A DNA stretch of 64,000 nt from Blastocatellia bacterium. Lineage in GTDB: Bacteria; Acidobacteriota; Blastocatellia; UBA7656. The notes under the pieces were generated by a model, which was not told the DNA's origin, did not search any database, and was given only the letters and a program-made list of their open reading frames with translations. The position numbers and the translations under genes are program-made. The DNA lies in contig CAVXWP010000001.1 of NCBI GenBank assembly GCA_963765495.1, positions 1 to 64,000 on the forward strand, given 5' to 3'. This document shows, piece by piece, positions 12,733 through 39,288 of the stretch (positions within the stretch are counted from its first letter, which is position 1; every line of letters begins with the position of its first letter).

Positions 12733-12957
12733 ATGAGTTATCAAGACTTCATCACAATTGATCCCGGTAAGCGGGGCGGTAAACCTTGCATTCGTGGCCT
12801 TCGCATTACAGTTCAGGATGTGCTCGATTATCTTGCCTCAGGCATGTCTATAGAAGAAATTCTCGACGATTTCCCTGATTTGACACGTAATGATATCCAA
12901 GCTTGTTTGGCTTTTGCAGCAGATCGAGAACGCAAGTTGATGACAATACCAGCGTGA
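12733..12957 (+). CDS. DUF433-family antitoxin
   Basis: 'ITIDPGKRGGKPCIRGLRITVQDVLDYLASGMSIEEILDDFPDLTRNDIQACLAFAA'. Confidence 0.92.
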   Translation: MSYQDFITIDPGKRGGKPCIRGLRITVQDVLDYLASGMSIEEILDDFPDLTRNDIQACLAFAADRERKLMTIPA

Positions 12958-22520: not shown

Positions 22521-23221
22521 TAATCCCCCCTGAAACTCGAAATTCTTGCTCTGTGGAAAGAAGCCTTCCTAAAGAAAGGTGCCGCAACGGCAAAAATGCT
22601 TTCAGCATCCTTAAGATAATCCTTTGGAATAGAGTCCAGATTGGCTGTCCCGAGTGCATAATCGAAGAGGTAATGAGCGCCATCATGCCTGATACTGCAA
22701 TGCATGTGCATCAGGACATTGCGAGGATCATTATCCTCGTAGGATGAATCCTTTACGATAAAGGACTCGCCTCTGCCGATGATCTCTTTCACTTCATTGC
22801 CCATCGAAGTTAATCGCCCGAGCAGGTTGTTGAACCTGGAATCCTTTCGCATGCTGATCTTGTAGAGGTTGCCATCAGCGCTATGTAATTTCATCTCTCT
22901 GCGATAGCGATGCATAGTTCTTGCCTCCAACCTGGAATAGTTCACTTCGAAATCTCCGTTTACGTTTTCTAATATTCGGTCAAGGTTCGTAGTTGCCTGT
23001 CTGATCGTAACGGCTGCGATGTAGGGCATCTTGTGCGATCCGACGGTCAATGACAGGCTGTTCTCCATACCGAGGCTGTCAAAACTGAAGACTTTGATGC
23101 CTTTCTTGACCGACTTCTCGTAATGTCCTGTGACCTGGTCGATGAAGCCTTCCAGGGTGAGGTTATAGCTTGCCCCCATTTCGAGATAGAACAACTCCTG
23201 TAGCCTGGATAGTTCTGACAT
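22520..23221 (-). CDS. Hypothetical protein within the MoxR-vWA operon
   Basis: 233 aa ORF; stop overlaps the next start; 6-bp gap to the upstream ATPase. Confidence 0.75.
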   Translation of the reverse strand: MSELSRLQELFYLEMGASYNLTLEGFIDQVTGHYEKSVKKGIKVFSFDSLGMENSLSLTVGSHKMPYIAAVTIRQATTNLDRILENVNGDFEVNYSRLEARTMHRYRREMKLHSADGNLYKISMRKDSRFNNLLGRLTSMGNEVKEIIGRGESFIVKDSSYEDNDPRNVLMHMHCSIRHDGAHYLFDYALGTANLDSIPKDYLKDAESIFAVAAPFFRKASFHRARISSFRGD

Positions 23222-23227
23222 CTAAAA

Positions 23228-24799
23228 TCACTCCTTGTACAGGTAATCCATCTGCTCTATTTTTGCCACCGCTCCTTTCGGTGGTTTGATGTATGGCCCC
23301 ATAGCTTTCAAGAACCAGGGGTTTTCCCTCGTACAATATTGTTCAAGCTCTCTCCACTTATGGTTTTCTGCCAGCCCCGACCCGATGATGCTGTGGACAT
23401 CGACATTTTCCAGGTGGGCGACACCTTCCTCGAACTTCTCGTTCGCCTGGGTGACGAATGTGCGTACCGCTTCAAAGCGGTTTCCCTGGTAATGCTTGGC
23501 TATCCAAGGGGAAGAGAGTCCGACCTTCGAGTAAGCGACAAAGCCGAAGATCGCTTCGATATCTTCGGGCCTGACTTTCAACTCGGCTACGTATTTGTGC
23601 AAAGCGGCCCTTGCCAGATCGTTACCCCGGAATCGGGTTGCCGTATACTGCTGTAGTGCATACTCCAGCCTTTCAGAGTATTTCGCCTCAGACCCCACCA
23701 TAATGCCGGAAGACCACGAGTGGAGCAGTTCTGCGAACTTCACCGCCCGCAGCACTGCAAGCCCTTTTGCAACAGAGACGAGGTTCTTGGATATCCCAGG
23801 CGTGATCCCTCTGATATATGGGCACAACTCATTCTCAAAGGACTTGATAAACCTGCATACTAAATCTGCCCCGTGGATCGGCTTCGTGCACACGTGATAG
23901 ATCGAGCCCCCCTTTGCCGGAATGCTCCCTTTCTCTTTGGTTAGTGAGTGCTCGCAAAAGTCGAACGCTTCAAGGAAGGCGAGAAATAGATCGGCGTTTT
24001 CGTGCAAATCCAACTGCCCCAAACCCTTGTAAATCTCGATTATGTCACTGACATGGTTTGTCTTATTGTTTAGCACGACCTCCTTGCTTCTTACATTCCG
24101 TGCAAGCCTCCTGTCCTCAGGTGTCGGTGTGAAGACATCCATCGGGATTTCTATGATTGTCCTTCGTCGCATCGCCTTATCGATGTCAAAAGTGCCGGAG
24201 TATTCCTCTCCCTCATTGATCGCAGCCACCTGGAACTGGTAGGTCCTCCCCGGTTCATACTCGTAACCAAGCTTAGCCTTGGTTCCATTCGGCATATTGA
24301 TTTCCATGTCAAAGATATGCATGAGGTTGGTCACAATCTTCGCATGACTGCGGTTGATCTCATCCACGATGAGGCCCGGCAGCAGGAATCGCGGGTTGAC
24401 TACGTAGAGGACTTCGGAATCCTTTCCTTCGATGATTGCACCGAAGTCAGTCTTAACGATCATATCCATGTTGAAGTCAACGTTGATATTAATCTTGTAC
24501 CAACCCGCTGCCTCTTTGCCGAAAAGCGAATTCATGACGAGTTTGGCGAGGGTCGTCTTGCCCCAGTCCGTGCCGCCGGTCATCAGTATCGAACTCTGTG
24601 TCAACGCGCCCACGAGAAGTATATCCTTGATTCCATAATTTAAGGTGATCGTATGCTTGAGCTTCCGATTCTCAAGGATTATTGGCGTGCGCTGTTCTAT
24701 TAATGGCTTGGAATGATAGTACTGGCTCGCATGTTCATTGAGCACGCCTTTGAGTGTGTGGGCTTTTGCTACAATATCGATTCTGTTTATCATGTTCAA
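23228..24799 (-). CDS. MoxR-like AAA+ ATPase with Cys-containing C-terminal extension
   Basis: Walker A 'GGTDWGKTT', Walker B 'LIVDEINR', sensor-1 'VAAIN', 'GTFDIDKAMRRR'; Cys cluster FCEH..VCTK..VCRF..LCPY. Confidence 0.85.
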   Translation of the reverse strand: MNMINRIDIVAKAHTLKGVLNEHASQYYHSKPLIEQRTPIILENRKLKHTITLNYGIKDILLVGALTQSSILMTGGTDWGKTTLAKLVMNSLFGKEAAGWYKININVDFNMDMIVKTDFGAIIEGKDSEVLYVVNPRFLLPGLIVDEINRSHAKIVTNLMHIFDMEINMPNGTKAKLGYEYEPGRTYQFQVAAINEGEEYSGTFDIDKAMRRRTIIEIPMDVFTPTPEDRRLARNVRSKEVVLNNKTNHVSDIIEIYKGLGQLDLHENADLFLAFLEAFDFCEHSLTKEKGSIPAKGGSIYHVCTKPIHGADLVCRFIKSFENELCPYIRGITPGISKNLVSVAKGLAVLRAVKFAELLHSWSSGIMVGSEAKYSERLEYALQQYTATRFRGNDLARAALHKYVAELKVRPEDIEAIFGFVAYSKVGLSSPWIAKHYQGNRFEAVRTFVTQANEKFEEGVAHLENVDVHSIIGSGLAENHKWRELEQYCTRENPWFLKAMGPYIKPPKGAVAKIEQMDYLYKE

Positions 24800-25315
24800 A
24801 CTCCAGCTTCTGTCAACAATGCGGGGTGGAGTTCAGAACCCATTGTTCTTACAATTCTTCCCGACCACTGTCGAGTCTTCTCTCTGCATCGGAATGGAGC
24901 GGGGCTTTGCAAACTACTGATTTTTGCGCTGCCCCAATCTCAGCTGCACAAGAATGAGATAAACGACGAGTTTGTTGAAAGCAAGGAAAGCTACAGTAAA
25001 GCGGGGTAAAACAATCACGTCGCCAGGAGCAATTGTGCGACTTATGGAGCGTAATTGTAAATGCCCGATTATCGTTTTCCCCTTCCATAGAAACCTCTAT
25101 ATGACAGACAGAAACCATCTCGCCGTTTTTCGCTCGATGCCCGCGCTCGCATCCGCGCAAGATAACGCGCCCTGGTTGCTCCAAGGGGTATGTATCTTCT
25201 TTACGGTTCACTTGCTCACTGCCCGATTGGCATCGGAATCCAACAACGCAACGACGGTCGAGGCAATCGAGTCGCCACCAGTTTGCTGGCTCGCAGTTTA
25301 ACATCAGCAAGATCC

Positions 25316-25963
25316 TTATTTCGCCTTGAATTCTTGAGAGATCAGAGTCGTTACTGCCGAATGTATCTTGCTTACGTGGTTTCCAAATTCCATGAGGCTC
25401 TGGAGTCGCGTCTTGTTGATGCCTGCGCCTCTCACTGGCGGTGAACTGTGGTAAGAATACTTTAGCAGATTCTGTATATCAATAATCGTCCTTGTGCTAT
25501 CTCCTATCGCACTGAGTTGCCTCTCTTGATACCATCGATTAGGTTCCTTCAGGCTCTCGTATTGATCCCTGAGAATAAACTTCTCGTTTGAGGAGTCTGT
25601 TAACTCATGTGTACTTTCGGGCGCGGCCTCTCCATTGAAATCATCTGACAGGGCTACTGTTAAGGGATTAGCCACCTCCTCCGCGCCACTTACGGAGAGT
25701 TGCGTATCATCCTTTTCCGGTTCATCCTGTACGACTCCTTTGTCTGTAGACGATGGTAATGGCGCCAGTGAACCGGTTGTATATTCGGTGGCGAATTCGA
25801 GGCGCTCACCACAGTGACCGCAGAAAACACTCTCCGCATCATTCCTCTCGCCGCAGCGACACAGCAAATCAAGCTGACCGTATCTTATTACAGATTGATC
25901 AGGAATTCCGATTTGTAGCTCCCCTCTCTTAGCGTCAAGTAATAACTGAACTCGAATTATCAT
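25316..25963 (-). CDS. Zinc-ribbon domain protein with acidic linker
   Basis: 'CRCGERNDAESVFCGHCGERL'; SD GGAG upstream. Confidence 0.65.
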   Translation of the reverse strand: MIIRVQLLLDAKRGELQIGIPDQSVIRYGQLDLLCRCGERNDAESVFCGHCGERLEFATEYTTGSLAPLPSSTDKGVVQDEPEKDDTQLSVSGAEEVANPLTVALSDDFNGEAAPESTHELTDSSNEKFILRDQYESLKEPNRWYQERQLSAIGDSTRTIIDIQNLLKYSYHSSPPVRGAGINKTRLQSLMEFGNHVSKIHSAVTTLISQEFKAK

Positions 25964-26255
25964 GGTTGTGCTCCAATCACGTCATCTCGAATCGAAAGAT
26001 AATTGCTGCGTCCGAAGTTCCGACACAGCCCGGCGCTACTTCGATAGCCTCCCTAACAGGCGTTTGTTGTTCTATCTAATTCTAATGCGATTATCAGCAG
26101 CAAATCTCGCAGGGCGATTAAAAAATTTTTATCCTAAATTTACGCAAGGGATGATAGGAGGTTATATCAATTATCTTCAGATATAGACCCCTGGCAGTCG
26201 AATCGGCAGAACCTTGATTACTTTTCCAGCATGCAGATTGGGGCGTTGGAATAGA

Positions 26256-26345
26256 CCACGGATTCGACGGATCAGACGGATTTACACGGATCAGACACTA
26301 TAGAACCAAATCCAAGGTTATCCATAGCGTATATCAAATCCGTGA
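26256..26345. repeat. REP-like element built from ACGGAT units with an inverted ATCCGTG copy
   Basis: accacggattcgacggatcagacggatttacacggatc ... aaatccgtg. Confidence 0.5.
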
Positions 26346-26418
26346 CCATTAGCGCAAGGCACAGGCTCAAATTCGGTTAGGCGGCGCAATTTTTTTGTTG
26401 CTGCGCGCCGCAAAAAAA

Positions 26419-27237
26419 CTATGACTCGAATGCTTCCCCAGTCGGCTCAGGCTTATTCTGATCAAGTTGATCCAGCATTCGTCGGGTATCCCTCACCCCC
26501 TGGCTATCACCTAATTTCTCGTCAATCGCCAGGCTTTCCTGATACTTCCTACTAGCTTTTTCACGCTCACCCTGCACGTGATATATCTCTCCAAGAAAAA
26601 AGAGATTCGAACTGATGCTTGAGAGAACGTCCCGTCGATCCGGCTGTAGATACTCAAGTTTGCGTAGTATTTTTATTGCTTGGGAAAAGCGTCTTGTGGC
26701 TTCCTCAAATTTGCCTTGCTGTCGATAGAGGAAACCAAGTTGATGATGAACGGCAGCAAGATTGAGTTCGCTGCGGGGCCCTCGAACTGCCAGTTCCGCT
26801 GCACGGAGATATAGTTTCTCGGCCTCTCGCAACCGCGCGTCGCCTTGAATCTCTTCAAAGGAAGCGCCGGGGCCGCGCTCATGATAGTTTCCATATTGGA
26901 TTACCCCCCTTTCGTGCAAGTGCTTAGCGCGGTCGTATAATCGTTGGGCGGCCGGTACCAAACGTTGCGAAACGATTGCAAGAGAGAGAACCCAGACCAG
27001 AATCATAATTGCCGGTTTCAACCCGGGGTTTGGAAACGTGAAGCCGCCAACCCTTCCAATAATGATTAAAGAAACAAAAAGCATCATCGCAAAACCAATC
27101 CGCTGATTCTGCATGCCTTCCAGAGCCAGATTCCGTATTCCATGTCTTCCCACTTCCCAGGCTATCAAGGACTGCCCGCCTAGGATGACGAATAAATAAT
27201 AGGCTGCGAATAAATCCTGGCCGCCAGGCAATTGCAT
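26419..27237 (-). CDS. Membrane protein with C-terminal TPR domain
   Basis: Three N-terminal TM helices; TPRs 'AAVHHQLGFLYRQQGKFEEATRRFSQAI', 'LGEIYHVQGEREKASRKYQESLAIDEKLGD'. Confidence 0.8.
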   Translation of the reverse strand: MQLPGGQDLFAAYYLFVILGGQSLIAWEVGRHGIRNLALEGMQNQRIGFAMMLFVSLIIIGRVGGFTFPNPGLKPAIMILVWVLSLAIVSQRLVPAAQRLYDRAKHLHERGVIQYGNYHERGPGASFEEIQGDARLREAEKLYLRAAELAVRGPRSELNLAAVHHQLGFLYRQQGKFEEATRRFSQAIKILRKLEYLQPDRRDVLSSISSNLFFLGEIYHVQGEREKASRKYQESLAIDEKLGDSQGVRDTRRMLDQLDQNKPEPTGEAFES

Positions 27238-27256
27238 AATGACTGCCCTCCGAGTA

Positions 27257-27838
27257 TCAGATATTCGTTGTCACTCGTTGCACGGGGATTCCATAACAGA
27301 TGGCCACTTCATTGACTCCACGAAGAAATTCTTCCTCAGCAGATTGCGGCCAGGCATCGGTATTTAGAATGATCATCTTTTGCGCGAACAACCAGTAAGA
27401 GATTTGCACCATGCGGCTCGTGCGATAGGGCGGCAAGTAATTTCGATCTTTCTCAACTATCCGTATCCCACGCACATCCTGCCATTCAACGCAAATCGCC
27501 CCAAATAGAGAACGAACCTTTATCTCTTTGCAGCTTACACACGCTGAGGTTAAGAAGACTAATATTGTGGAAGGGACTATCCTCAATGCTAAGAGACTGA
27601 ACAGGATTGCGAAGATGAGCACCGTAGTTGTGGAAATGCGACTGTAGGTCTCCCATAACAATACAGTTGGCAATACCCCGAGCAAGCTGACAAAGACGTG
27701 GGGCGCATAGGATTCAATAGTCGGCTTGAAACACTTGTTTTTCAACTTTAGGTTTTCAGTCGGCTCCTGTTGCTTGTCGACTTCTTCCTTATCCATATTC
27801 ATTTCTCCGATCTTGAATCTGCCTCTGTCGCGAGTCAC
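27257..27838 (-). CDS. Membrane protein with bacterial PH-like domain
   Basis: Two TM helices followed by 'EIKVRSLFGAICVEWQDVRGIRI'. Confidence 0.6.
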   Translation of the reverse strand: MTRDRGRFKIGEMNMDKEEVDKQQEPTENLKLKNKCFKPTIESYAPHVFVSLLGVLPTVLLWETYSRISTTTVLIFAILFSLLALRIVPSTILVFLTSACVSCKEIKVRSLFGAICVEWQDVRGIRIVEKDRNYLPPYRTSRMVQISYWLFAQKMIILNTDAWPQSAEEEFLRGVNEVAICYGIPVQRVTTNI

Positions 27839-28491
27839 TCATCCTTGCCAAAGAGCACGCGTACCAGCCCCAAGCTAACCGATTTAACGAGTCCCGCCGG
27901 TGTTACAAGATGAGTAAATTTGGCCTTTGGCAATAGCTTGGCCCCATCCGGGTTGAATCTTTTCAACTGCTCACGGACCAATTGCTGCATAGTCGCATCC
28001 AGGCCCGCGAATATACCGCTTGCATAGCGTAGCGGCGTCACCGATATCTCCCGGGCGATGAGACTGGCGGCGGCGCGGCCACGCGTGTTGGGATCAGTAA
28101 AGAAGGGCTCATTTTGTGCCGTGCGCTTCAGGTGAACGGTGACGACCACTGGACGCAGGCGATGCAAATTCTGGAGCGCCACGAAAATGTATGGCACAAG
28201 ATCAGATTTGAGCGGCGGCTGAATTTTACGTAGGCTGTAAGTAATAAAGTAAGCAAGATCGGGTGGGTATTCTGCGGCAAGGTGAAGGGCAATATCACCA
28301 AACTCTCGCCAATTGAGGGCCTTTTCCGCAAGGTGGTAGATGTTACTCAGGCGCGCAGCCTCTACCTGCATGAAAGAGTTGCCCCGTGCTTGCGCCTGCA
28401 AGGAAGCGGCGCGGTGAATCTGTGCGGCAATCTCCTCGACTTTGTCTTGCCATAAACGGCTCGATTGTGTGGCCCTGTCTAAAATTCCCAT
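27835..28491 (-). CDS. Hypothetical helical protein
   Basis: Likely start MGILDRATQ at 28491 overlapping the upstream stop; coupled to the downstream gene. Confidence 0.6.
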   Translation of the reverse strand: MGILDRATQSSRLWQDKVEEIAAQIHRAASLQAQARGNSFMQVEAARLSNIYHLAEKALNWREFGDIALHLAAEYPPDLAYFITYSLRKIQPPLKSDLVPYIFVALQNLHRLRPVVVTVHLKRTAQNEPFFTDPNTRGRAAASLIAREISVTPLRYASGIFAGLDATMQQLVREQLKRFNPDGAKLLPKAKFTHLVTPAGLVKSVSLGLVRVLFGKDE

Positions 28492-29114
28492 CTTGGGTCC
28501 TCGCTGTCTTTGGCTGGCGGAGGCCGGAGGCCCTTTCGCCGACAGGCTTTGGAAGAGCGGATTATCACGATGGGGGTGACAGCGAACCCCATTAAAATGC
28601 CTGCCGGAATCGTCATCGCGGTGCTTCTCAGAGATAATCCTGCATTGGCAAGCAACCAATCCATCTTCGACAATATCAAGACCTGTGCGCCTCCTATCAA
28701 TCCGCTCCAGAAAAGAGGCAGGAGGAAAATAACGAATTGTTTCCTTAACGCCCCGCCTGCAAAAATTGCGACAGCCAGGCCGATTCCCAAAAGCACGCCA
28801 CCGGAAAAACAGACCTCGATAATTGCGAGACTGTTGGTCCCGAGCCTGGTGAAAGCCGATACCGGCTCTGCGAACATCAATAGTAAGAGTAATAGTGATG
28901 CGATTGCCCAGACTGTTACGGCTATTCGAAGATAAACCAGCAGCGATTCTTTGAAGCTTGTGAGTTCGCTATGCAAGAAGGACTCTCTTGTATGAACTTC
29001 GCCGTATTGTAGCCAGGTGAATTGACACTCAAAACAAAAGAATGCTGTTACACGGTCATAAGGTCCTGGCCGGAATCCAAGTTCCCTCGATCCGCAATTC
29101 GGACATTCAGTCAT
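28479..29114 (-). CDS. Zinc-ribbon + four-TM membrane protein
   Basis: 'MTECPNCGS...FFCFECQF' then four hydrophobic helices. Confidence 0.7.
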   Translation of the reverse strand: MTECPNCGSRELGFRPGPYDRVTAFFCFECQFTWLQYGEVHTRESFLHSELTSFKESLLVYLRIAVTVWAIASLLLLLLMFAEPVSAFTRLGTNSLAIIEVCFSGGVLLGIGLAVAIFAGGALRKQFVIFLLPLFWSGLIGGAQVLILSKMDWLLANAGLSLRSTAMTIPAGILMGFAVTPIVIIRSSKACRRKGLRPPPAKDSEDPRWEF

Positions 29115-29137
29115 TTGTTTACCCTCATTTCGTTACG

Positions 29138-30883
29138 TTACGGAACTTGATAATCTCCACTGGCAAGCTCAATATCGCGCAACGTATCTTCGGCCTTCTG
29201 AAGACAACCGCGACATTCCCTTTCGTCCTTTGCTTGCAAAGGGCAACCGGGACATTCGGGTCGCCCCGCCAGAGCCTTTTGCGCAAGTTTGAGAGCCGTT
29301 GTCGCGTAGGAGCGAGCTTCATCCAATCGGTTAAGGTACAGGCATGCCAGCGCCACATTTTGATTAGGCTTGGCATAGTTGCCAACCCCTATCGCGGCCA
29401 GGCCATGGTTGACCGCCTCTTCAAAGAGCTTGATGCTTTCCTCTTCAACGCCCGCAATTTGCCCTTTCTCCGGGTTAGCCTGCATTTGCTCCAAAGCGAG
29501 AAGCACCTCGCGCGCTGCTAACGTGTTCCAATAAGACGTTACTTCGGGGCTTGCTTTCGTCGCCAGACGAAGCAGATTAACACTGCCGGCGATGTCCCCT
29601 TCCTGACGAAGTATCTCGGCCCTCATGCTGGTGATCATAGAGAGAGGATCGCTGTTGGGATGACATAGCTCGGCCATCGCAAGGTGCAGTCGCGCCTTAC
29701 CGAAGTCTTCAGCTAGTAGTGCTTGTTGTGCCCAGAATATTCTCTGCTTAAACATATCGACCTGTTTCTCTTTGATCTCATGCCACATCGCTTGCGTTTG
29801 ACCGAGGTTCGCCTCACGGCATCCCATCTGCTCGGCTTTTTCCAGGCACAATATTGCTTCTTGCGGTTCACAGACTAAGTCCGACAAGTTCAACCATGCG
29901 TTTATATAAGCCGGATTGAGAGCGATTGCTTCCCGAAACTCGCTGATCGCGTCGTTAACATCGCTAATATCCCTCAAGAAACAGCCATAATTGTAATGAC
30001 TGAGATAGATATTAGGATCAATATCAATAGCGCGGCGAAACTCCTTGTGAGCCTCCGGCCTTCGGTCTAATTCTGCATATGCATCCGCCAGACTCATCGC
30101 AACATCGGCAGACTGCGGATAAGCGCCTCGCGCCGGTTCAAGCAAGGCTAACACGCCGGTATAATCCTTAGAGTTTGCCATTGCCTGTGCGGTCTTCAGG
30201 ATTTCCCTCAGCGTTTCAACACTCCCATCAGGTGGTTTTTTGACTTCGCTCATTTTCTTTGATGGTAAGTTGGCTTGATTAACCACGGGGATTGGTATTC
30301 CGGGCGGCAAGTCTGCGTCATTACTGGTCGCCATCGGTTTGGCCTCTCTTTTCTTCACAGATAAGTCGTAAATCAGGTCTGAGGTGTCATCGTTAGTGAG
30401 ATTGAGAGACGGCAAAAATGCTCCTATCCCCGCGCAGGCGAAAAAGCCGCAGACAGCGCCTAGAATGATTATGCCGAGCAGGTCGCCAATGCCCTGGATT
30501 CGCATCGCGGCCCAGGTCTCATCCGGCATCCTGGCGAGCGCCGTGACCAGATCAGTATTTAGCGTCAGGATGACCCTTGCGCCCGAGGCAAGAACACTGC
30601 CGATTATCACGCCAAGCTGTGGGCAAAAGAGCATTGCGGCAGGCATTCGTCTTTCCGGCCTCAATGGTTGCTCAAGCCATTTTCCGGCCCTGGCTGGTCC
30701 GCGCAGGACTCCTGCCAGAAACCCGCCAGCCATCCCATTGGCGATAGAGCTTATCATTATCTCGGACCATATGAGTGAAAGGCTTTCTTTGTACGCCACT
30801 GCCAAAAGGATCAGTCCTGTCAAGCAGGCCAGGACTGTCCCAAGAAAAACACCTATCATTCCAGCCTGAATTCTTTTCATCAC
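29138..30883 (-). CDS. Multi-TM protein with TPR array and C-terminal Cys motif
   Basis: Gly-rich TM N-terminus; TPRs 'AHKEFRRAIDIDPN', 'AISEFREAIALNPAYINAWLNL'; 'ECPGCP...ECRGC'. Confidence 0.8.
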   Translation of the reverse strand: MMKRIQAGMIGVFLGTVLACLTGLILLAVAYKESLSLIWSEIMISSIANGMAGGFLAGVLRGPARAGKWLEQPLRPERRMPAAMLFCPQLGVIIGSVLASGARVILTLNTDLVTALARMPDETWAAMRIQGIGDLLGIIILGAVCGFFACAGIGAFLPSLNLTNDDTSDLIYDLSVKKREAKPMATSNDADLPPGIPIPVVNQANLPSKKMSEVKKPPDGSVETLREILKTAQAMANSKDYTGVLALLEPARGAYPQSADVAMSLADAYAELDRRPEAHKEFRRAIDIDPNIYLSHYNYGCFLRDISDVNDAISEFREAIALNPAYINAWLNLSDLVCEPQEAILCLEKAEQMGCREANLGQTQAMWHEIKEKQVDMFKQRIFWAQQALLAEDFGKARLHLAMAELCHPNSDPLSMITSMRAEILRQEGDIAGSVNLLRLATKASPEVTSYWNTLAAREVLLALEQMQANPEKGQIAGVEEESIKLFEEAVNHGLAAIGVGNYAKPNQNVALACLYLNRLDEARSYATTALKLAQKALAGRPECPGCPLQAKDERECRGCLQKAEDTLRDIELASGDYQVP

Positions 30884-30949: not shown

Positions 30950-33900
30950 TTATCCTTGTTCCTGCAGGGCCAGGCTCTCGCGCCGAGGCTCTGCCAGGTC
31001 GCCTTCGACTTGCCGAGAGTCTTTTTTGTTTGTGTGCCCGATGCAAGTCATTGCCCAGTAGTATGGATGATTAAATTTTCTAAAGCGCTTCTCATTGATA
31101 AATAAACACTGCGCGCGCCTGAGCGATGGGGCAACAGATTCGCCGGACGCAAGACCTTTGAAGACCTCGTTGAGCAAAATATTTGCTGAACCTACATGTA
31201 CGGCATAGTGCGCCGCTAGAATTGAGCGCGCTCCCTTCGCCAGAAAAGCAGTGGTCATGCTTTCCCACTCACCGCTGAAAGGAGAGTTTTGTTGTTGTGC
31301 AAAACAGGCAAGCAGCGCCAGCAGGTTACAATCTAAATCCACAGATGAATAGATATCCTTCAAAGTTAAATCCCAGTTGGCAGGGAAGCTTCTAAGCTGT
31401 TTGTCCTTGGCCCCGAAATGCAAAAGCGGTGTGGGCCACTGTTCACCATGGGCTACGATCATGATGCGCTGGTAGTCTTTGATCGAATCAAAAAGCTCTC
31501 GCCACGTACGCCCTGCCGAATTGCCATCCTGGCCGCCGTATCTGGTGATCACGCCCTTTTCGGATATAAGCCCAACATCCATCGATTTAGGTTCGTTATC
31601 GTTGTTCACAAAATCGCCTGATATTAATTTGAGAAGACTATCTGAACCGTTCTGGTTATTTTTAGAGGTCCGAATATTGGCCAGCCACTGGAGGCTGGGA
31701 CAAACTACAACTTCGTATTGTTGGATCAGAAAGGAGCGACCATCGTGCAGCGCGCAGAACGGAAGGTCATTAAAGATGCTGCCGAACGGCACGATTACAA
31801 TCCGCGAGATGCTGCGCGCTGCATGCGCGGAGTTGAGAATCTGCTGAATCTGTGGGACTCCTATTAGAGCCGAGTATAGTCTTCGCGCTCCGCTTCTGTC
31901 AGGGTCAAATTCCGCCGATCTGATTGGTCGCAGAGACCGGGCTTGTTCCTCCGGCTTTTCAATCCATTCCAATTCTGTTCCAAAAGGGTAAGCCACGGCA
32001 TTTTGCGGGTTTTCCGGGTCATAAGCCGAGCCAATATACTTCTTTAAATTTCGGGCGGCTCTGAATAATTTCCTGGCAGCCGCTTTGCGATAACAGATAG
32101 CTTCACCCAATCCCTTGCGTGTGGCGGGTATTATGGCAAGCAATGCATCGCACGAATCGACCGGCGATATTCGCTCCTCACGCGCAAAAACCTGTAAAAC
32201 CAGCGTATCCGGCTCAGCTATACCCTGATTGAGCAATTCTTTACAGGGAAGAAAATCCACTGCAATCGAATCCGGCAACATCTGTTCACTGATATCTTTC
32301 TCAAGCAACCAGTCCCAGTCATATTTTTGAGTGGTTGACGAGACGTGGCCCGCCAGTCTCTCAAGCTCGACTTCGGATTTGCCGGACTCAAGGCAATACT
32401 CAATCGCGGTTGCCTCTACGAGGCGGGCTTCTGACACTTCGATAGGCAGTGCCACGGCTTTGTTTGTTGAGGCGGAAAGGTAAACCTCTACGAGCCTGCG
32501 ACATTTAGCACGTTCGCAGTATTCAAAGGCTCGTGCAGCCCAATCTTTATCCGGTTCTCTTAATTGCAACTCCAGCAGCGTTTCGATCAAATAGCCGTAG
32601 ACATCCTGATGTTCGTGAAGCAACACGGCGCGGGCAAGGGCTGGTCCGGCATTTGGTCGAATCTTCTCTATGATTTCAACCGCCTGTTCGAGGTCACGAC
32701 AGGCAGCGCGGAGATTGCCCATTTTTCTAAATGCCATACCGCGACGAGAGTGAGCGAGGATCATTTCCATCTCATCGCCTAGCTGCCGGGCTGACAACAC
32801 GGCATGCCCCAATAGCTGGATTGCTTTATTCAGAGCTTCCGGCTTGATGACATTCCCAGATGCATCGAGCGAGATGTTGATCCTGCTCAATCCCGAAATG
32901 CTCAAATCCTGCGAGAATCCGCCGCTCCCGATTGAATCCAGAAGCGATTGTTGCTCTTCATAATGTTGCACCGCCTGTTCGAATTTCCCTTTTTTCCAAC
33001 AGATCTCAGCAATGCAGCCGATCTGTCTGGCCTCTGCGATTACCACTCTTTTTTCTTTGGTTGGCAACTTGCTCACTAAGGACAGCGCTTGACGATGGCA
33101 GGCCAGGGCACAGTCGAGCCATGAATCTCCATCAATGTGCAGTCCCTGCTTTCTCAAAATTGTGATGTTGTGGGCAGCACTAAAGCTTTGCCACCACATC
33201 TCGTCTATCTGATCGGAGAGTCGCGCAAGCGTTTGATAGATCAGACCCTTATTCCCCCAGGCGTTTGCGGCCATCAGGATGTTTCCTAACTGGACAAAGA
33301 TTTTTATTGCTTCGTCCAGGTGGTCAAGAGCATCCTGACGACCCGAGGTCCATCGGGTTTCCATGTATATATGACTCAATTCGTTGTGACAGTCTGCTTG
33401 CCCGTGCAAATCATAAGACTTAATCGTCAAATCCAGGGCTTCTTCGTAAAGCTCACAGGCAAGTCGAAATTCAGCTAACGGCGCACAACTCTTGGCAAGG
33501 CTGCGCGCGCAAGTAGCGATATGCCTGACCTCTTTCTCTTGTCGATAGATTTCCAGCGCCCGCATATAGTGATCGCGCGCTTTTTTCCAGCGCTGTAGCC
33601 TCTGACTATCAAACCCGCGCATCTCCTCTAATACAGCGGTTCTAAGATGGTTCTCTCGGATCGCGACGATCTCTTTCACTTGATCTGGCGAGCGGGCATC
33701 CACCGCTCCAAACCAAACCAGCAGCGTGCCCGGATTATTTCTTTCGACCTCAAGTAAATGCCTGGCCAGTTTCTGATGTTCCTGCCGGTTAAGCGAAGCG
33801 CGGGGAATGAGTAGGACCGTTCCATCTACACCCGACTGAATAAACAGATCGGATGAGAAACCCGCAAAACGACGTAGAGTGGCAAAGAAACTATATTGAA

Positions 33901-34309
33901 ATGGTGTTGTTAGGCGTAAATCTTCGCCTCCAATAGATAATAAAACCGACTTCCTCTTCGACAAACTCAATAGTTGGCGGAAGCTCCAGGGAAGTTCCGA
34001 GACACGGGCGATTTCTTTCCATTTTACGCCCCCTCGCCTCTGATTATCAGTAAGATGATGCGCAAGCCTTTGAGAGCCTATTCGGAGGCCCTCGTCGTCA
34101 ATCACGATGCGGAATGAAAACAGGTATACGTCTATCGCAAGTCTGCAAGCAAAAACAACAGCAACAGCCAGGATGGCGATCATATGCCACCTGGGGAAGA
34201 GCATCCACAATATAGCCGCGCAAACGGTACAAATAGCTCCCGTTAACGCGGCCCGCCCGAGGAGCTTGCCCCCAATGGAGGGGGTGGATTCAGGGTTTGA
34301 AGCAGTCAT
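30950..34309 (-). CDS. Membrane-anchored TPR-CHAT (caspase-like) protease
   Basis: Two TM helices + PH-like region; TPRs; 'AFEYCERAKCR', 'IVIVPFG...LPFCALHDGRSFLIQ', His 'IVAHG', Cys 'LLACF', 'HPYYWA'. Confidence 0.88.
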   Translation of the reverse strand: MTASNPESTPSIGGKLLGRAALTGAICTVCAAILWMLFPRWHMIAILAVAVVFACRLAIDVYLFSFRIVIDDEGLRIGSQRLAHHLTDNQRRGGVKWKEIARVSELPWSFRQLLSLSKRKSVLLSIGGEDLRLTTPFQYSFFATLRRFAGFSSDLFIQSGVDGTVLLIPRASLNRQEHQKLARHLLEVERNNPGTLLVWFGAVDARSPDQVKEIVAIRENHLRTAVLEEMRGFDSQRLQRWKKARDHYMRALEIYRQEKEVRHIATCARSLAKSCAPLAEFRLACELYEEALDLTIKSYDLHGQADCHNELSHIYMETRWTSGRQDALDHLDEAIKIFVQLGNILMAANAWGNKGLIYQTLARLSDQIDEMWWQSFSAAHNITILRKQGLHIDGDSWLDCALACHRQALSLVSKLPTKEKRVVIAEARQIGCIAEICWKKGKFEQAVQHYEEQQSLLDSIGSGGFSQDLSISGLSRINISLDASGNVIKPEALNKAIQLLGHAVLSARQLGDEMEMILAHSRRGMAFRKMGNLRAACRDLEQAVEIIEKIRPNAGPALARAVLLHEHQDVYGYLIETLLELQLREPDKDWAARAFEYCERAKCRRLVEVYLSASTNKAVALPIEVSEARLVEATAIEYCLESGKSEVELERLAGHVSSTTQKYDWDWLLEKDISEQMLPDSIAVDFLPCKELLNQGIAEPDTLVLQVFAREERISPVDSCDALLAIIPATRKGLGEAICYRKAAARKLFRAARNLKKYIGSAYDPENPQNAVAYPFGTELEWIEKPEEQARSLRPIRSAEFDPDRSGARRLYSALIGVPQIQQILNSAHAARSISRIVIVPFGSIFNDLPFCALHDGRSFLIQQYEVVVCPSLQWLANIRTSKNNQNGSDSLLKLISGDFVNNDNEPKSMDVGLISEKGVITRYGGQDGNSAGRTWRELFDSIKDYQRIMIVAHGEQWPTPLLHFGAKDKQLRSFPANWDLTLKDIYSSVDLDCNLLALLACFAQQQNSPFSGEWESMTTAFLAKGARSILAAHYAVHVGSANILLNEVFKGLASGESVAPSLRRAQCLFINEKRFRKFNHPYYWAMTCIGHTNKKDSRQVEGDLAEPRRESLALQEQG

Positions 34310-34992
34310 ACCAGTCTATCTCGTACGCACATGGATTGCGCCCAGGGAATTAGAATGAAGGGGTAGAGTAAGCCGAAGAATGCCCCCGACCACCAGGCTA
34401 TGTGCAGTATCATACATTGAATAATGCCTGTGATTATCCCTACGGCGAGCGGTAGGGATCTATAGAGAAGAAACCCCATTTCCTGTTTTCCTCGCTGTTG
34501 GAAAACGTCAGCGGCTCTCACCGCGAAACAAATAAGCATGCCCGATGCCATACCACCACCAAGCGTCAATAGACCGGCCTTCATAGCCGGATAATTTTTC
34601 ACGGATTCGGCCCCGCCGAATCCGATGACGAACTGGAAAATAGACAGAATCGACCAGACCATCGAACCGGTGCTGGAATAATGCCAGAGCGATCCGAGAA
34701 ACGATTCGACCTTGCGATTTCCTTTCCCCAATTTGGTAAATAGAGCAGCGAAAAACATGCCGACGGTGAAACCGAATGCTAATGGAACAAAGAAGATGAG
34801 AGTCTTCTTGCCGAGAGATACGTCCTGCAATGAGGTGGAATTCCATAGCACATCCATCGGTATTTCCAGCAGATGGCAAAACAGATAGAGGCTGGATAGG
34901 CTCGCGCTGATAAAGCCCAAGAAGAACCCGAAACGCATGTAAACCGGGCTTGCCTCACCTGAATTTATATCCGATTCTGCATTTCTGGACAC
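34306..34992 (-). CDS. Multi-pass membrane protein
   Basis: About six hydrophobic helices; ATGA overlap with the CHAT gene. Confidence 0.7.
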   Translation of the reverse strand: MSRNAESDINSGEASPVYMRFGFFLGFISASLSSLYLFCHLLEIPMDVLWNSTSLQDVSLGKKTLIFFVPLAFGFTVGMFFAALFTKLGKGNRKVESFLGSLWHYSSTGSMVWSILSIFQFVIGFGGAESVKNYPAMKAGLLTLGGGMASGMLICFAVRAADVFQQRGKQEMGFLLYRSLPLAVGIITGIIQCMILHIAWWSGAFFGLLYPFILIPWAQSMCVRDRLV

Positions 34993-35049: not shown

Positions 35050-35706
35050 CTATGGGCATACAATTACGATTATCTGCTCAAGGGGGAGAGCCTCGAAATA
35101 AGCAACCCAACACTCTTTTTCACAAATGCTGCTGGGGTCCTGAGCCCTTTCGCGGATATATCGCGATTCTTTTTCCGGTTCTGTGGTGATAATTTGCCCA
35201 TCTTCCAACAAAAGCTCGATGTGCGGAGGAGTCTGTTCAAAGTTGTTTTCGCAAGGAACAACTACGGTGATCATTCTCTCGCTATCCAGAGCTTCAAGCA
35301 TTGATCCTGTCGGCACCTGCTCTGATGGCAGGAAATCCATTTCGCCACGCTCGACCGTGTCGATTGACTGCTCCCCCGCTGCTCTCGCGTTTATCTCTGC
35401 CATTGCGTAACTGGGCAGGGGCGTGAAGAGGTTGGGCCTATTAAAGTTCACCACAATAGCTGCCACCGCGCGCTTTGCCTGCGCCTCCCGGTCAGCTTTG
35501 GCCAGGGCAAGTCCCTGCAATGTTTCCGCATAGGATTGAGCAGATAAATGCCGTAAAGCAGAGAACATTCTTGCATTGTCTAGGCAACCCGGGCAATCGG
35601 TGAAGTGATGCTCTAAATCAATTTCGCCGCTCTCGGATAGCCTCGCCGCAAAGTAGTCCTCTAACTCATCCACAGTTATATGGTCCCTACCTCTTTCCTC
35701 GCTCAT
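35050..35706 (-). CDS. Zinc-finger (zf-HC2/ZAS) anti-sigma factor, apparently soluble
   Basis: 'DHITVDELEDYF...LEHHFTDCPGC' (H..HxxxCxxC); follows the sigma gene; no clear TM; likely start MSEERGRDH. Confidence 0.8.
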   Translation of the reverse strand: MSEERGRDHITVDELEDYFAARLSESGEIDLEHHFTDCPGCLDNARMFSALRHLSAQSYAETLQGLALAKADREAQAKRAVAAIVVNFNRPNLFTPLPSYAMAEINARAAGEQSIDTVERGEMDFLPSEQVPTGSMLEALDSERMITVVVPCENNFEQTPPHIELLLEDGQIITTEPEKESRYIRERAQDPSSICEKECWVAYFEALPLEQIIVIVCP

Positions 35707-35778
35707 AAAGCCTTCTTTCGTTAATACAGTTGCCGAAAGGGTTTCTCGCAACCTGGATCGAGAAAATTCCGGCAGAAG

Positions 35779-37044
35779 TCACTTTGACCGTTTTCGGGCC
35801 AACTCTCGTATAAGACGCCTAAATACGGCATTCCACCAACGCACAACGTCATCACAGGCTTTTTTTTTGTATTCCTTTGCCTCCGGCGTATTCTCAGGTT
35901 TGTGGGTGTAGTACTCTCGTAGAAACGTCCCTCCTACGACACGCTCTGCCAAGTCCAGGTAAATTCCCAGCGTCTTGGGCGGTATACCTGCATCTTTGAG
36001 AAGCAGAGGCATCCGAGCGCGAAGTGATTCGAACAACTCGAGCGTTTTTTGATCCGATACTATTTGATGGAACTCTTCTTCGAGGCGGCTCTCAAGCTCT
36101 CTTAGGTCAATATCAGATAATTCCTCCACCACTTCGCCGGGTTTCCATTCCAAGAGTTTACAGAAGCCGAAAACGATTGACTGATGCGGTGGATTGGGGC
36201 TTCCGCAAGCTATTCGAATAGCATTTTTGTATAATGAAAGGCGCATAATAGCGTCTTCGTTTTCACGAAGGTGCGGTTGTGCAATGCGCTCAATTATTTC
36301 TGTATCATCGTCTCGAAATTCTGCGTCTGGAAAACGTGCGGAGAACTCGCTAAATAGTTCGTGGACCTTTGCCCGGTCTTTTCGTACTTTGAAGAAACGC
36401 AACAACTCGTAGTGAGCCCTTTGTTTGGCAAAAGAGAGAAAACTTCCATGTACATGGTCGTAATTCTTTAAATTTTTCAAGACAGCGACCCACGCATCCT
36501 GAGCTATATCCTCAGCGTCCTGATTGTTATAGACGTGACTTTCTATGTATACCTTAATTTCGCGGTAATAACGTTCGCCCAAGATGTCTAAACTGGCTTG
36601 ATTTCCATTCTTAGCGTCCACGGCGGTTAAAACGTCATCCAGGTCTATCGTGCTTATGTTTCGCCACCACCTATCAAGATGCTCCTTTCCGGCGTCTATA
36701 CTATATGCTCCCAGAGTAGTATTACCCGTAACCTGAGTCAGTAGATTTTTGTAAACGGTTATAATCTTCTTGTTATTGGTGGTCTGTTCCAGAGGGAGGC
36801 TAAGTCTTTGGCGCAGGCTATCGAGGCTGTTAGTATCAAAAATACTTGGAAATCTTTTTTTGCACTCGCTGTCGATTTGATCCACGAGATTGGCGAGAGT
36901 TTTGTCAAAGATTTCTTTCTCGATACTTGACTTTTCCCGCCAGCCAAACAGCTTAATGAAGGTAAAGGCTATTACAAGATGTGGGGGGCTGGGGCTGGAA
37001 AATGTTACCCGCAGCATCTCTTGTTGATTTGGGGCCATCATCAT
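35779..37044 (-). CDS. ECF-like sigma-70 factor with a duplicated ~120-aa domain flanking region 2
   Basis: Sigma region 2 'NNQDAEDIAQDAWVAVLKNLKNYD...SFLSF'; PPH..I.F.F.KL..W...RWW domain present at both ends. Confidence 0.75.
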   Translation of the reverse strand: MMMAPNQQEMLRVTFSSPSPPHLVIAFTFIKLFGWREKSSIEKEIFDKTLANLVDQIDSECKKRFPSIFDTNSLDSLRQRLSLPLEQTTNNKKIITVYKNLLTQVTGNTTLGAYSIDAGKEHLDRWWRNISTIDLDDVLTAVDAKNGNQASLDILGERYYREIKVYIESHVYNNQDAEDIAQDAWVAVLKNLKNYDHVHGSFLSFAKQRAHYELLRFFKVRKDRAKVHELFSEFSARFPDAEFRDDDTEIIERIAQPHLRENEDAIMRLSLYKNAIRIACGSPNPPHQSIVFGFCKLLEWKPGEVVEELSDIDLRELESRLEEEFHQIVSDQKTLELFESLRARMPLLLKDAGIPPKTLGIYLDLAERVVGGTFLREYYTHKPENTPEAKEYKKKACDDVVRWWNAVFRRLIRELARKRSK

Positions 37045-37992
37045 CGCTCCGCTGCTCTTTGAAGTTCAAACAATCAGTAAAGATCAATGTCTGTTTAGAA
37101 AGCTGCTACTCGAACTCATGTGACGCAACGAAGGTGTGTAGGTACTGAAGCTCGAGGCGGCCGATGCGATTATATACCTACTCGAGAAAATAACCAATAA
37201 GGGGTTACCCTGAGTCATGCCCAGCGAAAATAAAAGCCTGTAGCTTTGCTATCAAAAAGCAAGTTTAGAAACTTGGCTGATTCTCTCAGTAATTTCAATG
37301 CTATCTGTACCCACGACAACACTACTCGCTTCTTTTTTCGGGTGCAGAATTTATCTCTGTAGCCAGCCTTATTTCCTCGCTTGAATTCAAGTTTCGAAAA
37401 GACATCGATATAACGACAATATTATTGCTCTAAGCGAGCCAAGATCGAGGTTCATTAAACGGATAATGACAAGGAGGATGAGGCTTCGATAAGAGAGGGG
37501 CGAAGTGTTGGAGTCCTTCAAGGCTGTATGCAGTGCGCAAGGTTGTTGGTTGCTGCCAAATTTATCCGGCATTGATTGCAGAAATTCACGAGTAATCACT
37601 CGTGCTTCTATTCATGGTCCCTATCCCCTTTTGCGAATCCATCTCTCTCAAATTTCTATAATATGGCCGGTTCTTTGTCCTAAAGTCTGCATTAACAAAT
37701 AAGTCCGGCCCGAAGCAATGCGGGACAGCTAAGATATATACGCTTGTGTGTGATGGCCTACTGTATTTTGGGGTAGCGGCGCATGGCCGCGAGACGACGA
37801 TCTACAAACTGAGGCGTCCATAATTTTAGTAGGAGATGCCATCTAAATCGCTCTTGTTTGAAACATTTACATTTGCTGATTAACTTCTGATCAGGTTTGA
37901 TCCGCGAAAACCGCCCGCCCCGTGGTAGTCTCGGATCATTTAAGATTAGATTGCTTTGGAGATTTGCTTTTATCAATCTTTTGCTTTTCGAT

Positions 37993-39288
37993 TTAGCTGG
38001 TCGCAGATCCCGAATGTAAATCAACTTTCTGGTCCCGGACCTCGCGCAGTCGCCGCTCGAGAAATCGGCGCTCGCTATCATTGGTGACTAACGCCAGCGC
38101 CAGTTCGTAGCTCTGAGCCGCCTGTAGAAAAGAGCCCGCGCGGCGTAACAGATCGGCTCGCGCGGCATAAAACAGGTGATAGTCCTCAAGCTCTACAGCG
38201 AGCGCATCCAGGAGAGCGAGTGCTGTTTCAGGTCCTTCTACCATGGCGACCGCCACCGCCCGGTTCAGCGACACTACGGGAGAGGGTTGCAGGCGTTCGA
38301 GCAAGCTGTAAAGCCTGACAATTTGCGGCCAGTTCGTATCTTCGGCTCGCGCCGCCTGACAATGCAGAGCCGCAATCGCCGCCTGCACTCCGAACGGCCC
38401 GGGACCACCCTGTAGCGATTCCTCGACGAGCGGAAGTGCCTCGGCGATCTGCTGTCTGTTCCACAGGCGGCGGTCCTGCTCTTCAAGCAGTACGAGATCG
38501 CCGTCTCGATCAAGACGGGCATCACGCCTTGAATCGTGCAGCAACATCAGAGCGACCAGACCCGTCACTTCCGCTGGAGCGCGGGGCGTCATCAACCCCC
38601 TCACGAGATGCCCGAGACGTATGGCCTCGGCGCAGAGATCGGTCCTCATAAGCGGCTCGCCCCGAGTCGCCAGATAACCTTCGTTGAAGATGAGATAGAT
38701 CACTGTCAGCACCGCGTCCAGCCGCGCGGGCATATCGCTTGTATCGGGGACCGTATATGGAATGCCCGCATCACGAATCTTGCGCTTGGCGCGCACGAGC
38801 CGTTGCGCCATCGTCGGCGCGGGGACGAGAAACGCGCGCGCGATTTCATCCGTCTGGAGGCCGCCCAGCATGCGCAGCGTCAGCGCGACCTGTGCCTCCG
38901 GTGCCAGCGCCGGATGACAGCAGGTAAAGATCAGTCGCAGTCGGTCGTCGGGGATTTCGCCGTTATCATAACTCGGTTCTATGCTGGTCGGGATCAGCCC
39001 GGAGGCGGCATACCATTCAAGCTTTTCCTCAATCCGCTTGCGGCGACGGAGACGGTCAATGGCTTTGTATCTGGCTGCCTTGATGATCCACGCGCGCGGA
39101 AACTCAGGGATGCCATCGGTCGGCCATTGATTCACGGCAACTGCAAAGGCTTCCTGCGCCGCCTCTTCGGCGAGGTCGAAGTCGCCAAAAAACCGGATCA
39201 GCGCAGCGATGATCCGGCCCCAATCGGAGCGGTAAACTCCGTCAATCGCGTGGTTTACATCTGTTTTTGCTTCTGGAATCATACTCAA
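37993..39288 (-). CDS. ECF42-type RNA polymerase sigma factor with C-terminal DUF6596/TPR extension
   Basis: 'GDFDLAEEAAQEAF', 'IPDDRLRLIFTCCHPAL', 'MAQRLVRAKRKI', 'YLIFNEGY', 'LEEQDRRLW'. Confidence 0.9.
   Translation of the reverse strand: MSMIPEAKTDVNHAIDGVYRSDWGRIIAALIRFFGDFDLAEEAAQEAFAVAVNQWPTDGIPEFPRAWIIKAARYKAIDRLRRRKRIEEKLEWYAASGLIPTSIEPSYDNGEIPDDRLRLIFTCCHPALAPEAQVALTLRMLGGLQTDEIARAFLVPAPTMAQRLVRAKRKIRDAGIPYTVPDTSDMPARLDAVLTVIYLIFNEGYLATRGEPLMRTDLCAEAIRLGHLVRGLMTPRAPAEVTGLVALMLLHDSRRDARLDRDGDLVLLEEQDRRLWNRQQIAEALPLVEESLQGGPGPFGVQAAIAALHCQAARAEDTNWPQIVRLYSLLERLQPSPVVSLNRAVAVAMVEGPETALALLDALAVELEDYHLFYAARADLLRRAGSFLQAAQSYELALALVTNDSERRFLERRLREVRDQKVDLHSGSATS

Follow-up and report, generated by a model that had tools for sequence, protein, structure and literature searches.

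Does an RNA polymerase sigma factor still work as one when its region 2 (sigma2) lies between two copies of a domain that has neither a Pfam nor an NCBIfam model, and to what kind of sigma factor does it then belong? The question is raised by a 421-residue open reading frame (ORF) in the window, by which we mean the whole 64,000-nucleotide stretch analyzed here, positions 1 to 64,000 of contig CAVXWP010000001.1 from a Blastocatellia bacterium (GenBank assembly GCA_963765495.1, phylum Acidobacteriota). An earlier note on this DNA had described the product as similar to sigma factors of the extracytoplasmic function (ECF) type, with sigma2 sandwiched between two copies of a novel domain of about 120 residues, a description that holds, with copies of about 125–135 residues. 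Beyond that note, we found the protein to be one of a sizeable, mostly one-copy family set in a context of ZAS anti-sigma and caspase-like protease genes. A GGAG motif precedes the ATG of the ORF by a few bases, and an in-frame stop lies 7 codons upstream.

A duplicated domain flanks sigma2

The internal duplication is real. Aligning the protein to itself pairs residues 11–130 with residues 276–407, by BLASTP (52 bits, E = 5e-14, 37/133 identical, or 28%) as well as by Smith-Waterman, where the self-score of 126 was reached in 0 of 1000 shuffles (27.9 ± 4.7, maximum 51). The self-alignment proposed in the earlier note as a check is thus significant, and the strings that it had matched by eye are present in the two copies (SPSPPHLVIAFTFIKLFGW, residues 17–35, and SPNPPHQSIVFGFCKLLEW, residues 282–300). 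In other proteins, too, the profile of the N-terminal (N) copy aligns with that of the C-terminal (C) copy, over 129 columns (hhalign, E = 1.2e-40).

An AlphaFold2 model based on a 137-sequence alignment reached a mean predicted local distance difference test (pLDDT) of 90.8 and a predicted template modeling score (pTM) of 0.64; a model from 4 sequences was discarded (pLDDT 46.5). The C copy is modeled with helices at residues 261–281, 286–297, 302–309, 314–329, and 332–343, followed by short elements and a G-rich hairpin and then by a long helix at 389–419. The N copy, with pLDDT of about 90–97 across residues 11–130, repeats this helix pattern with truncated first (6–15) and last (120–131) helices and continues straight into sigma2. 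Family-conserved positions are P286, H287, F292, P302, L314, G371, Y378, and V407, and W403, in the last helix, is invariant in the 137 sequences.

The sigma2 part is of ECF (group 4) type. Pfam Sigma70_r2, the sole Pfam match in the 421-residue protein (residues 157–221, E = 2.4e-10), is matched by 128 of 137 family members, and model residues 133 to 228/229 superpose on sigma2 of AlgU (8z6g) with a VIA-align Z of 12.4–12.8 and a root mean square deviation (rmsd) of 1.5 Å over 91–92 residues; across AlgU and sigmaE structures, Z is 12.4–12.8 and the rmsd 1.5–2.4 Å. As in other proteins of this type there is no sigma3, since about 25–30 low-confidence residues separate sigma2 from the C domain and Sigma70_r3 is unmatched in Pfam. 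The same scan gave no sigma4 family at E≤1, and NCBIfam returned generic ECF models only, under their cut-offs and over the sigma2 half.

The repeated domain resembles sigma4

The earlier note had seen a start like that of sigma4 in the C copy, which profile comparison and structural superposition bear out. Against sigma4 of the genome's own ECF sigma factors, hhalign gave E = 0.021 for C copies and E = 0.0015, over 40 columns, for N copies (weak, single-comparison values), laying PPHQlIaFGF.kLL.WkP..IV.eL on L....R.V..L....G.s..EIA..L. The sigma4 of 3mzy_A superposes on model residues 263–421 with an rmsd of 1.8 Å over 73 aligned residues and a Z of 6.3, below the level of 8 that is safe with this tool for helical proteins, and whole sigma chains from holoenzyme structures align over 140–169 residues across the model from residue 133 to 413–421. 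A Foldseek search of the model against the PDB, another check proposed in the earlier note, gave a divided answer: nothing matched at E≤0.001, and the best rows were ECF sigma factors aligned over about 200 columns. Taken together, the profile and structural alignments suggest that the repeated domain likely descends from sigma4, at about twice its size. The C copy is built, in order, of three sigma4-like helices, an acidic fourth helix, a stretch of about 60 residues (helix, loop, and a hairpin with the motif Y..LL.R.VG.T.LR.YY), and a long basic last helix.

Against this descent, sigma4 goes undetected by sequence. A Sigma70_r4 or r4_2 match at E≤0.1 occurs in 1 of 137 members. Profile matches in the PDB cover sigma2 only and stop there, and the "RpoE" of an RNA-guided transcription complex (9n9q_C) was matched by the sequence profile over sigma2 only. 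With a domain-only profile, no PDB sequence scored below E = 0.3, and sigma chains were absent at E≤10. An ESM Atlas search with residues 261–421 returned sub-threshold leads only, with unnamed clusters at 0.86–0.88 and sigma4-named ones at 0.81–0.82. Matches to HTH_16, found in 10 of 137 members, were rejected as the identity of the new domain because they map to the N-terminus of sigma2 where located.

The earlier note had further proposed a sigma4 helix-turn-helix (HTH) split by a large insertion, and this part of its claim can be read both ways, as the sigma4 alignments end in the last helix and the sequence also reads uninterrupted. We lean slightly toward the split, with the last helix at the position of the sigma4 recognition helix in the model; the alternative is a complete four-helix sigma4 followed by a C-terminal extension of about 90 residues. 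Every structural alignment that covers sigma4 of solved sigma factors ends at model residues 413–421, in the last helix, and that of 3mzy_A is gapless in count, with 73 of 73 chain residues placed at 1.8 Å, a fit that is difficult to explain if the recognition helix is not overlaid by about 23 residues of the last one, which favors the split. The last helix of C copies is also basic (+1.5), with hydrophobic spacing as in TVksRl.RAr..L. For a contiguous sigma4 speak the 4-residue turn, like that of a normal HTH, between helices 302–309 and 314–329, the alignment of the N-copy profile to sigma4 through the fourth helix (E = 0.0015), and R315 and R320, which stand at what we take to be positions where canonical recognition helices carry lysine or arginine. 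In an hhalign splice test, the first three helices joined to the last helix scored 19.8 (E = 9.5e-4), joined to the adjacent helix 15.2, and alone 15.1, with a reversed control at 16.0; this comparison does not discriminate, because helix-5 windows score 19–21.5 too (75 windows slid). Artefacts of gaps and hubs dominated a mean-field direct coupling analysis of 169–203 domain sequences, which did not show which of the helices takes the place of the recognition helix in the packing.

A family outside the published ECF classification

A word-index search for homologues returned 3 relatives only and was superseded by an exhaustive profile search. Scored against 1.84 billion cluster representatives (50% identity clusters), a profile of four sequences matched 185 representatives at E≤1e-30, 802 at ≤1e-10, and 28,413 at ≤0.001, the weaker matches at E≤0.001 being expected to share sigma2 only. 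A hidden Markov model (HMM) of the C-terminal domain (137 positions) matches 151/151 of the best representatives, to which the architecture counts refer. Homologues with one and with two copies, which the earlier note had suggested looking for, both exist: sigma2 is followed by one C copy in 95/151, and 20/151 have the layout of the window protein, with N copy, sigma2, and C copy. Another N-terminal extension, of 60–190 residues, is present in 18/151 and one of at least 250 residues in 7/151; 4/151 carry two copies arranged otherwise (two of these as C-terminal tandems), 4/151 three or more copies or other layouts, and 3/151 are domain-only proteins. These apparently stand-alone proteins are doubtful, and at least one looks like a truncated gene call, because P0137 (152 residues) shares a 90% cluster with a 400-residue protein named sigma24.

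A metagenomic protein of 845 residues (P0100) carries five copies of the domain with no detectable Pfam sigma2, and the domain would therefore also be used outside sigma factors. In P0047 and P0118, the slot before sigma2 is occupied by TRADD-like_N. A subfamily of about 675–690 residues has an N-terminal region of about 420 residues belonging to no known family (L053:5848-7875, L072:4642-6705, and L077:6366-8411; further members are P0035, P0084, P0101, P0131, and P0143). The source names of family members, where present, are generic ("sigma24 family protein").

Only one gene with the domain was found among 50,716 six-frame ORFs of the window's 7.3-Mb genome, where Sigma70_r4_2 has 57 matches, the 421-residue sigma gene not among them. 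Within the window's phylum, 2/401 genomes carry the domain, the window's own included, and neither of the 2 genomes of the same family does. The Chloroflexota metagenome-assembled genome (MAG) that holds locus L031 has a second, weaker domain match in a 367-residue frame about 15 kb off (L096/L097, G402:C56:289848-290309).

The library behind the ECF re-classification required Pfam hits to both sigma2 and sigma4, according to the available part of that paper (Casas-Pastor et al., 2021; PMC7826278). In the 421-residue protein, sigma4 is undetected by Pfam, and the family was missed by the published classification, which called for a sigma4 hit. CHAT and caspase are unmentioned in the main text of the re-classification, and the ECF evolution paper (PMC7671368), in its available part, mentions N-terminal extensions and no domain duplication. 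Our search of full-text literature found no description of any ECF-type sigma factor that has this duplicated-sigma4 architecture. The suggestion in the earlier note that the architecture is unlike the classified ECF groups is thus in line with the main text and filter of PMC7826278 and with the single sigma4 hit among 137 members. As far as checked, the family is a new ECF-like variant outside the published ECF classification, a whole branch with a remodeled sigma4, amounting to at least 185 clusters at 50% identity, that escapes the ECF catalogue.

Origin and role of the N-terminal copy

As a paralogue of the C-terminal domain, the N copy is old and degenerate. In a quick tree, N copies sit on long branches and cluster among themselves, in no case with the C copy of the same protein (7 label changes, versus 20 in shuffles); the tree is poorly resolved, and at least two origins are forced in it, partly by one long branch. 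Mean net charge is +1.2 in C copies (+1.5 in the last helix) and −1.4 in N copies (−1.4 in the last helix), which have lost the basic V.RR end that is conserved in the last helix of C copies. In 20 two-flank proteins the N copy ends 0–5 residues before the first sigma2 helix. This junction without a linker points to descent from a tandem pair of sigma genes, the end of one probably having been fused to the start of the next. In relatives the slot is empty, or filled by TRADD-N or other extensions. The duplication amounts to a natural experiment on a sigma4-derived domain moved across sigma2.

Its acidity, its lack of a basic tail, and its direct connection to sigma2 suggest for the N copy the part of a regulator or adaptor, packed against the body of sigma2 and C copy, and not that of a second reader of DNA. 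Predicting residues 1–132 in complex with residues 133–421 gave a median ipSAE (interaction prediction score from aligned errors) of 0.41 (0.41, 0.42, and 0.00), against 0.00 for the best control. The mark used for such predictions is reached by 116/157 solved complexes and 2/215 mismatches, and at ≤0.60 by only 18/157 solved complexes and by both passing mismatches; with 0% contact agreement between runs and a partner pLDDT of at least 65, the prediction lends packing weak support.

Three other roles for the N copy were considered. It is unlikely to be a second DNA-binding module that reads an extra element, making the promoter tripartite as with a fused activator. N copies do keep an HTH-like core (P-H, L..L...L, G.T.L..Y, W) and fit sigma4 profiles better than C copies (E = 0.0015, 40 columns), and the domain forms arrays of up to 5 copies (P0100), as is common in DNA-binding repeats, yet the acidic charge (mean −1.4) and missing V.RR end speak against it, and a repeated or shared upstream motif was not found in 31 family upstream regions.

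Hardly better placed is the idea that the N copy is a pro-sequence, cut off by the CHAT protease to activate the sigma factor, to which the processing of BldN is a parallel. Caspase-fold proteases do adjoin the sigma gene, and the available parts of two papers describe a sigma factor cut directly by PCaspase (bioRxiv 10.1101/2023.06.23.546230) and an N-terminal extension removed by proteolysis in ECF121 (PMC7826278). However, the 20 two-flank proteins lack an obvious flexible linker at the junction of N copy and sigma2, which speaks against a simple pro-sequence that is cleaved off, and the ZAS partner is retained in the 95/151 members without an N extension. Nor is a link of the family to PCc-sigma, the PCaspase substrate, supported, because the domain was found in 0/401 genomes sampled from the phylum to which a Myxococcales MAG belongs.

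That the N copy is a functionless leftover of the tandem-gene fusion seems very improbable. Its end helices are truncated, its junction with sigma2 falls exactly where the preceding gene would end, and N copies sit on long branches, all as expected of a relic, but it has been kept in 20/151 diverse representatives with a conserved core and a confident fold (pLDDT about 90–97).

Anti-sigma partner, caspase-like neighbors, and a proposed mechanism

The gene next to the sigma gene encodes a ZAS-type protein of 233 residues, for which Pfam zf-HC2 is weak (E = 0.21) and no hydrophobic segment is apparent by eye. With an HMM of this protein, an HxxxCxxC protein was found downstream of the sigma gene in 35/36 family loci with at least 450 bp of room, some of these loci being near-duplicates, so that they are not 36 independent cases. 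The gene lies directly 3' of the sigma gene in most loci and 2.5 kb off in L063. At L052/L053 and L083, the sigma gene is followed by a pair of adjacent ZAS-like ORFs rather than by a single one. Judged from sequence, the 233-residue protein would be the cognate anti-sigma factor.

Family loci number 45 (1 taken from genome contigs, 43 from metagenomes, and 1 from a related genome), and neighborhoods were annotated in 15 of them, picked for flank length and to skip duplicates. Genes for caspase-fold proteases (CHAT or C14) occur in 8 of the 15, as well as in the window: CHAT proteins are encoded at L064, L075, L085, L087, and L092, and a Peptidase_C14 caspase gene lies directly upstream of the sigma forms of about 680 residues at L053, L072, and L077. 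The TPR-CHAT protein of the window has two N-terminal hydrophobic segments and, by eye, the His/Cys dyad motifs ..AHGE.. and ..LLACFAQ... ClpB-like AAA+ proteins (L055, L075, L085), Ser/Thr kinases (L031, L084, L092), and STAND/NPHP3_N, WD40, LRR, and TPR domains are also among the neighbors.

The reading we favor, and consider rather probable, is that the protein functions as an alternative sigma factor within an ECF-like family that is so far unclassified, with the ZAS protein holding it, CHAT activity releasing it, and its N copy regulating it. Under this proposal, sigma2 would be followed by the acidic linker and by a sigma4-derived domain of about 135 residues, made of the first three sigma4 helices and about 80 added residues; the 421-residue protein would act with RNA polymerase as a sigma factor, kept in check by the cytoplasmic ZAS anti-sigma factor encoded directly downstream, and the membrane-anchored TPR-CHAT protein, or another caspase-fold neighbor, would trigger its release. 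TPR-CHAT is the likely releasing activity by analogy to Csx29-Csx30-CASP-sigma and DdvA-DdvS. The ZAS pairing and the frequent caspase, CHAT, and STAND neighbors tie the family to protease-controlled transcription in bacterial immunity.

A number of observations weigh against this proposal. The fourth helix, which follows the HTH turn directly, is acidic, with a net charge of −1.8, so that reading of −35 DNA is not assured. A bipartite promoter motif sought in the 31 family upstream regions reached a best count of 6, against a maximum of 4–6 in shuffles. A caspase-fold gene was not seen in 7/15 loci in the stretch covered, homologues of the 228-residue membrane protein encoded between the ZAS and CHAT genes were found in 0 of 45 family loci (phmmer), and the exact gene order of the window is not conserved among family loci. 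Cleavage of the anti-sigma factor or of the sigma factor by CHAT is, moreover, posited by analogy.

Some of the same facts would fit a sigma-like decoy, for which PhyR is the model: the 421-residue protein would trap the ZAS protein, and another sigma factor would be the real output. Pfam misses the sigma4 part, which has diverged too far, helix four is acidic, and an ECF sigma gene of canonical type is found immediately upstream (37993-39288). We regard this as distinctly unlikely, given that sigma2 is well conserved (128/137 pass Pfam; Z 12.4–12.8 and 1.5 Å to AlgU sigma2), that the upstream gene lies outside the low-GC island described below, that the 15 annotated neighborhoods hold no second sigma2-bearing gene, and that the protein has no receiver or other switch domain. 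A more specific form of the favored reading, in which an insert of about 80 residues splits the sigma4 HTH, the acidic N copy masks the protein as a pseudo-sigma4, and ZAS and CHAT control it, is doubtful; region 1.1 of sigma70 is a parallel for such a built-in mask. If true, it would make the protein a caspase-gated sigma factor devoted to a mobile conflict or defense island.

Genomic setting

The sigma gene lies in a stretch of low GC content at the start of the contig (window positions 1-38000, 0.43–0.52, against 0.55–0.58 beyond 38 kb), in which many ORFs have no Pfam family (Table 1). This stretch is probably an integrated mobile element: the low GC content, the integrase, and the presence of the domain in 2/401 genomes of the phylum fit a mobile island. 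Further signs of mobile contexts come from other loci, where a type IV secretion coupling protein (TraG/VirD4-like; L063:1-2061) and a group II intron reverse transcriptase (L061:4958-6688) are encoded beside family members.

Table 1. Features of the window around the sigma gene. Residue numbers refer to the 421-residue protein unless stated.
Feature	Coordinates	Strand	Basis or remark
Sigma factor gene (N copy, sigma2, linker, C copy)	35779..37044	-	421-residue ORF, translation
N copy, residues 8-131	36652..37023	-	Family HMM, E = 1e-29; self-alignment
Sigma2 (sigma-70 region 2), residues ~133-228	36361..36648	-	Pfam and structural alignment
Acidic linker between sigma2 and C copy, residues ~238-260	36265..36333	-	Low pLDDT: 53-65, <50 at 256-260
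C-terminal sigma4-derived domain, residues 261-421	35782..36264	-	Family HMM at 272-416, E = 9e-45
Upstream non-coding stretch, 948 bp	37045..37992	-	Sequence; edge of low-GC island
ZAS-type anti-sigma-like protein, 233 residues	35050..35751	-	HFTDCPGC (HxxxCxxC); next gene downstream of sigma gene
Multi-pass membrane protein, 228 residues, no family assigned	34306..34992	-	Hydrophobic segments by eye; no Pfam match
TPR-CHAT caspase-like protease, 1119 residues	30950..34309	-	Pfam CHAT at its residues 808-1091, E = 3.4e-24; TPR_12, E = 1.1e-15
TPR proteins	29138-30883, 26419-27237	-	Same-strand run
Zinc-ribbon protein	25316-25963	-	Same-strand run
HATPase_c_3 protein	18724-20331	-	Same-strand run
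DUF5615 protein	12903-13286		Low-GC stretch
Phage-type integrase	4871-5713		Low-GC stretch
AAA_25 protein	1222-3471		Low-GC stretch
Small protein with TubC_N docking domain	842-1225		Low-GC stretch

Downstream of the CHAT gene, a run of genes on the same strand (14768-30883, minus) also includes a 1319-residue ORF and several of 150–730 residues that have no Pfam or PADLOC family; genes of this run may be the regulon or the effectors of the sigma factor. PADLOC recognized no known defense system in 15 ORFs (18.7–37.0 kb), and none of the 30 window ORFs scanned with Pfam (222 to 39288) belongs to a cas or CRISPR family. The second sigma gene, directly upstream on the minus strand (37993-39288), encodes 431 residues with Sigma70_r2, Sigma70_r4_2, and DUF6596, an ordinary extended ECF type in the flank of higher GC content.

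Comparison with known systems

The family shares with canonical ECF sigma factors (Escherichia coli sigmaE, Pseudomonas aeruginosa AlgU) a sigma2, the absence of sigma3, an anti-sigma gene directly downstream, and recognizable first three sigma4 helices. It differs from them in a C domain about twice the size of sigma4, with a Pfam sigma4 match in 1/137 members and an acidic helix after the HTH turn, and, in the window protein, in a second copy of that domain before sigma2. In ECF sigma factors with extra domains fused to the sigma2-sigma4 core, the extensions act in cis on sigma activity, as the N copy would in the reading favored here; what sets the window protein apart is that its extension is paralogous to its C-terminal domain and that it comes with an anti-sigma factor too.

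The immune systems that follow are compared as the available parts of the cited papers describe them. In type III-E CRISPR, Csx29 cleaves Csx30 and thereby frees CASP-sigma (PMC10028731), so that genes for an ECF-like sigma factor, an inhibitor that binds it, and a TPR-CHAT protein sit together, much as in our locus, where the logic of proteolytic release would be the same. Our locus has a ZAS protein as its putative inhibitor rather than Csx30, CASP-sigma is by its description a canonical ECF sigma factor, and the scanned ORFs of the window hold no cas-related Pfam family of the kind that would mark a Craspase module (Cas7-11, Csx29, Csx30, Csx31). In Myxococcus xanthus, DdvA is a ZAS anti-sigma factor with TPR-CHAT, proposed to release DdvS (PMC11506125), and here too ZAS and TPR-CHAT would together control an ECF sigma factor of a defense island. 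DdvA joins ZAS, a transmembrane helix, and a periplasmic TPR-CHAT in one protein, and DdvS has an ordinary sigma2 and sigma4, whereas the window encodes an apparently soluble ZAS protein (35050-35751) and its TPR-CHAT protein (30950-34309) in two ORFs, divided by the gene for a membrane protein.

Haliangium ochraceum encodes PCc-sigma, PCaspase, SAVED-CHAT, and PCk together, a combination of sigma, C14, CHAT, and kinase genes that family loci approach with C14 at L053, L072, and L077 and with kinases at L031, L084, and L092. PCc-sigma, compared with our family by description only, is itself the caspase substrate, cleaved by PCaspase (bioRxiv 10.1101/2023.06.23.546230). Kaur et al. (2021; PMC8195603) describe fusions of TRADD-N to an "ECF-like HTH" as well as caspase/EACC2 systems that include ECF sigma genes; our family resembles these in the TRADD-like_N before sigma2 of two members and in its caspase, STAND, TPR, WD40, and kinase neighbors, whereas the C-terminal domain and its duplication are not described in the available part of that paper. 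Set beside Craspase, DdvA, and PCaspase, the family offers a CRISPR-independent test case of protease-controlled transcription in bacterial immunity.

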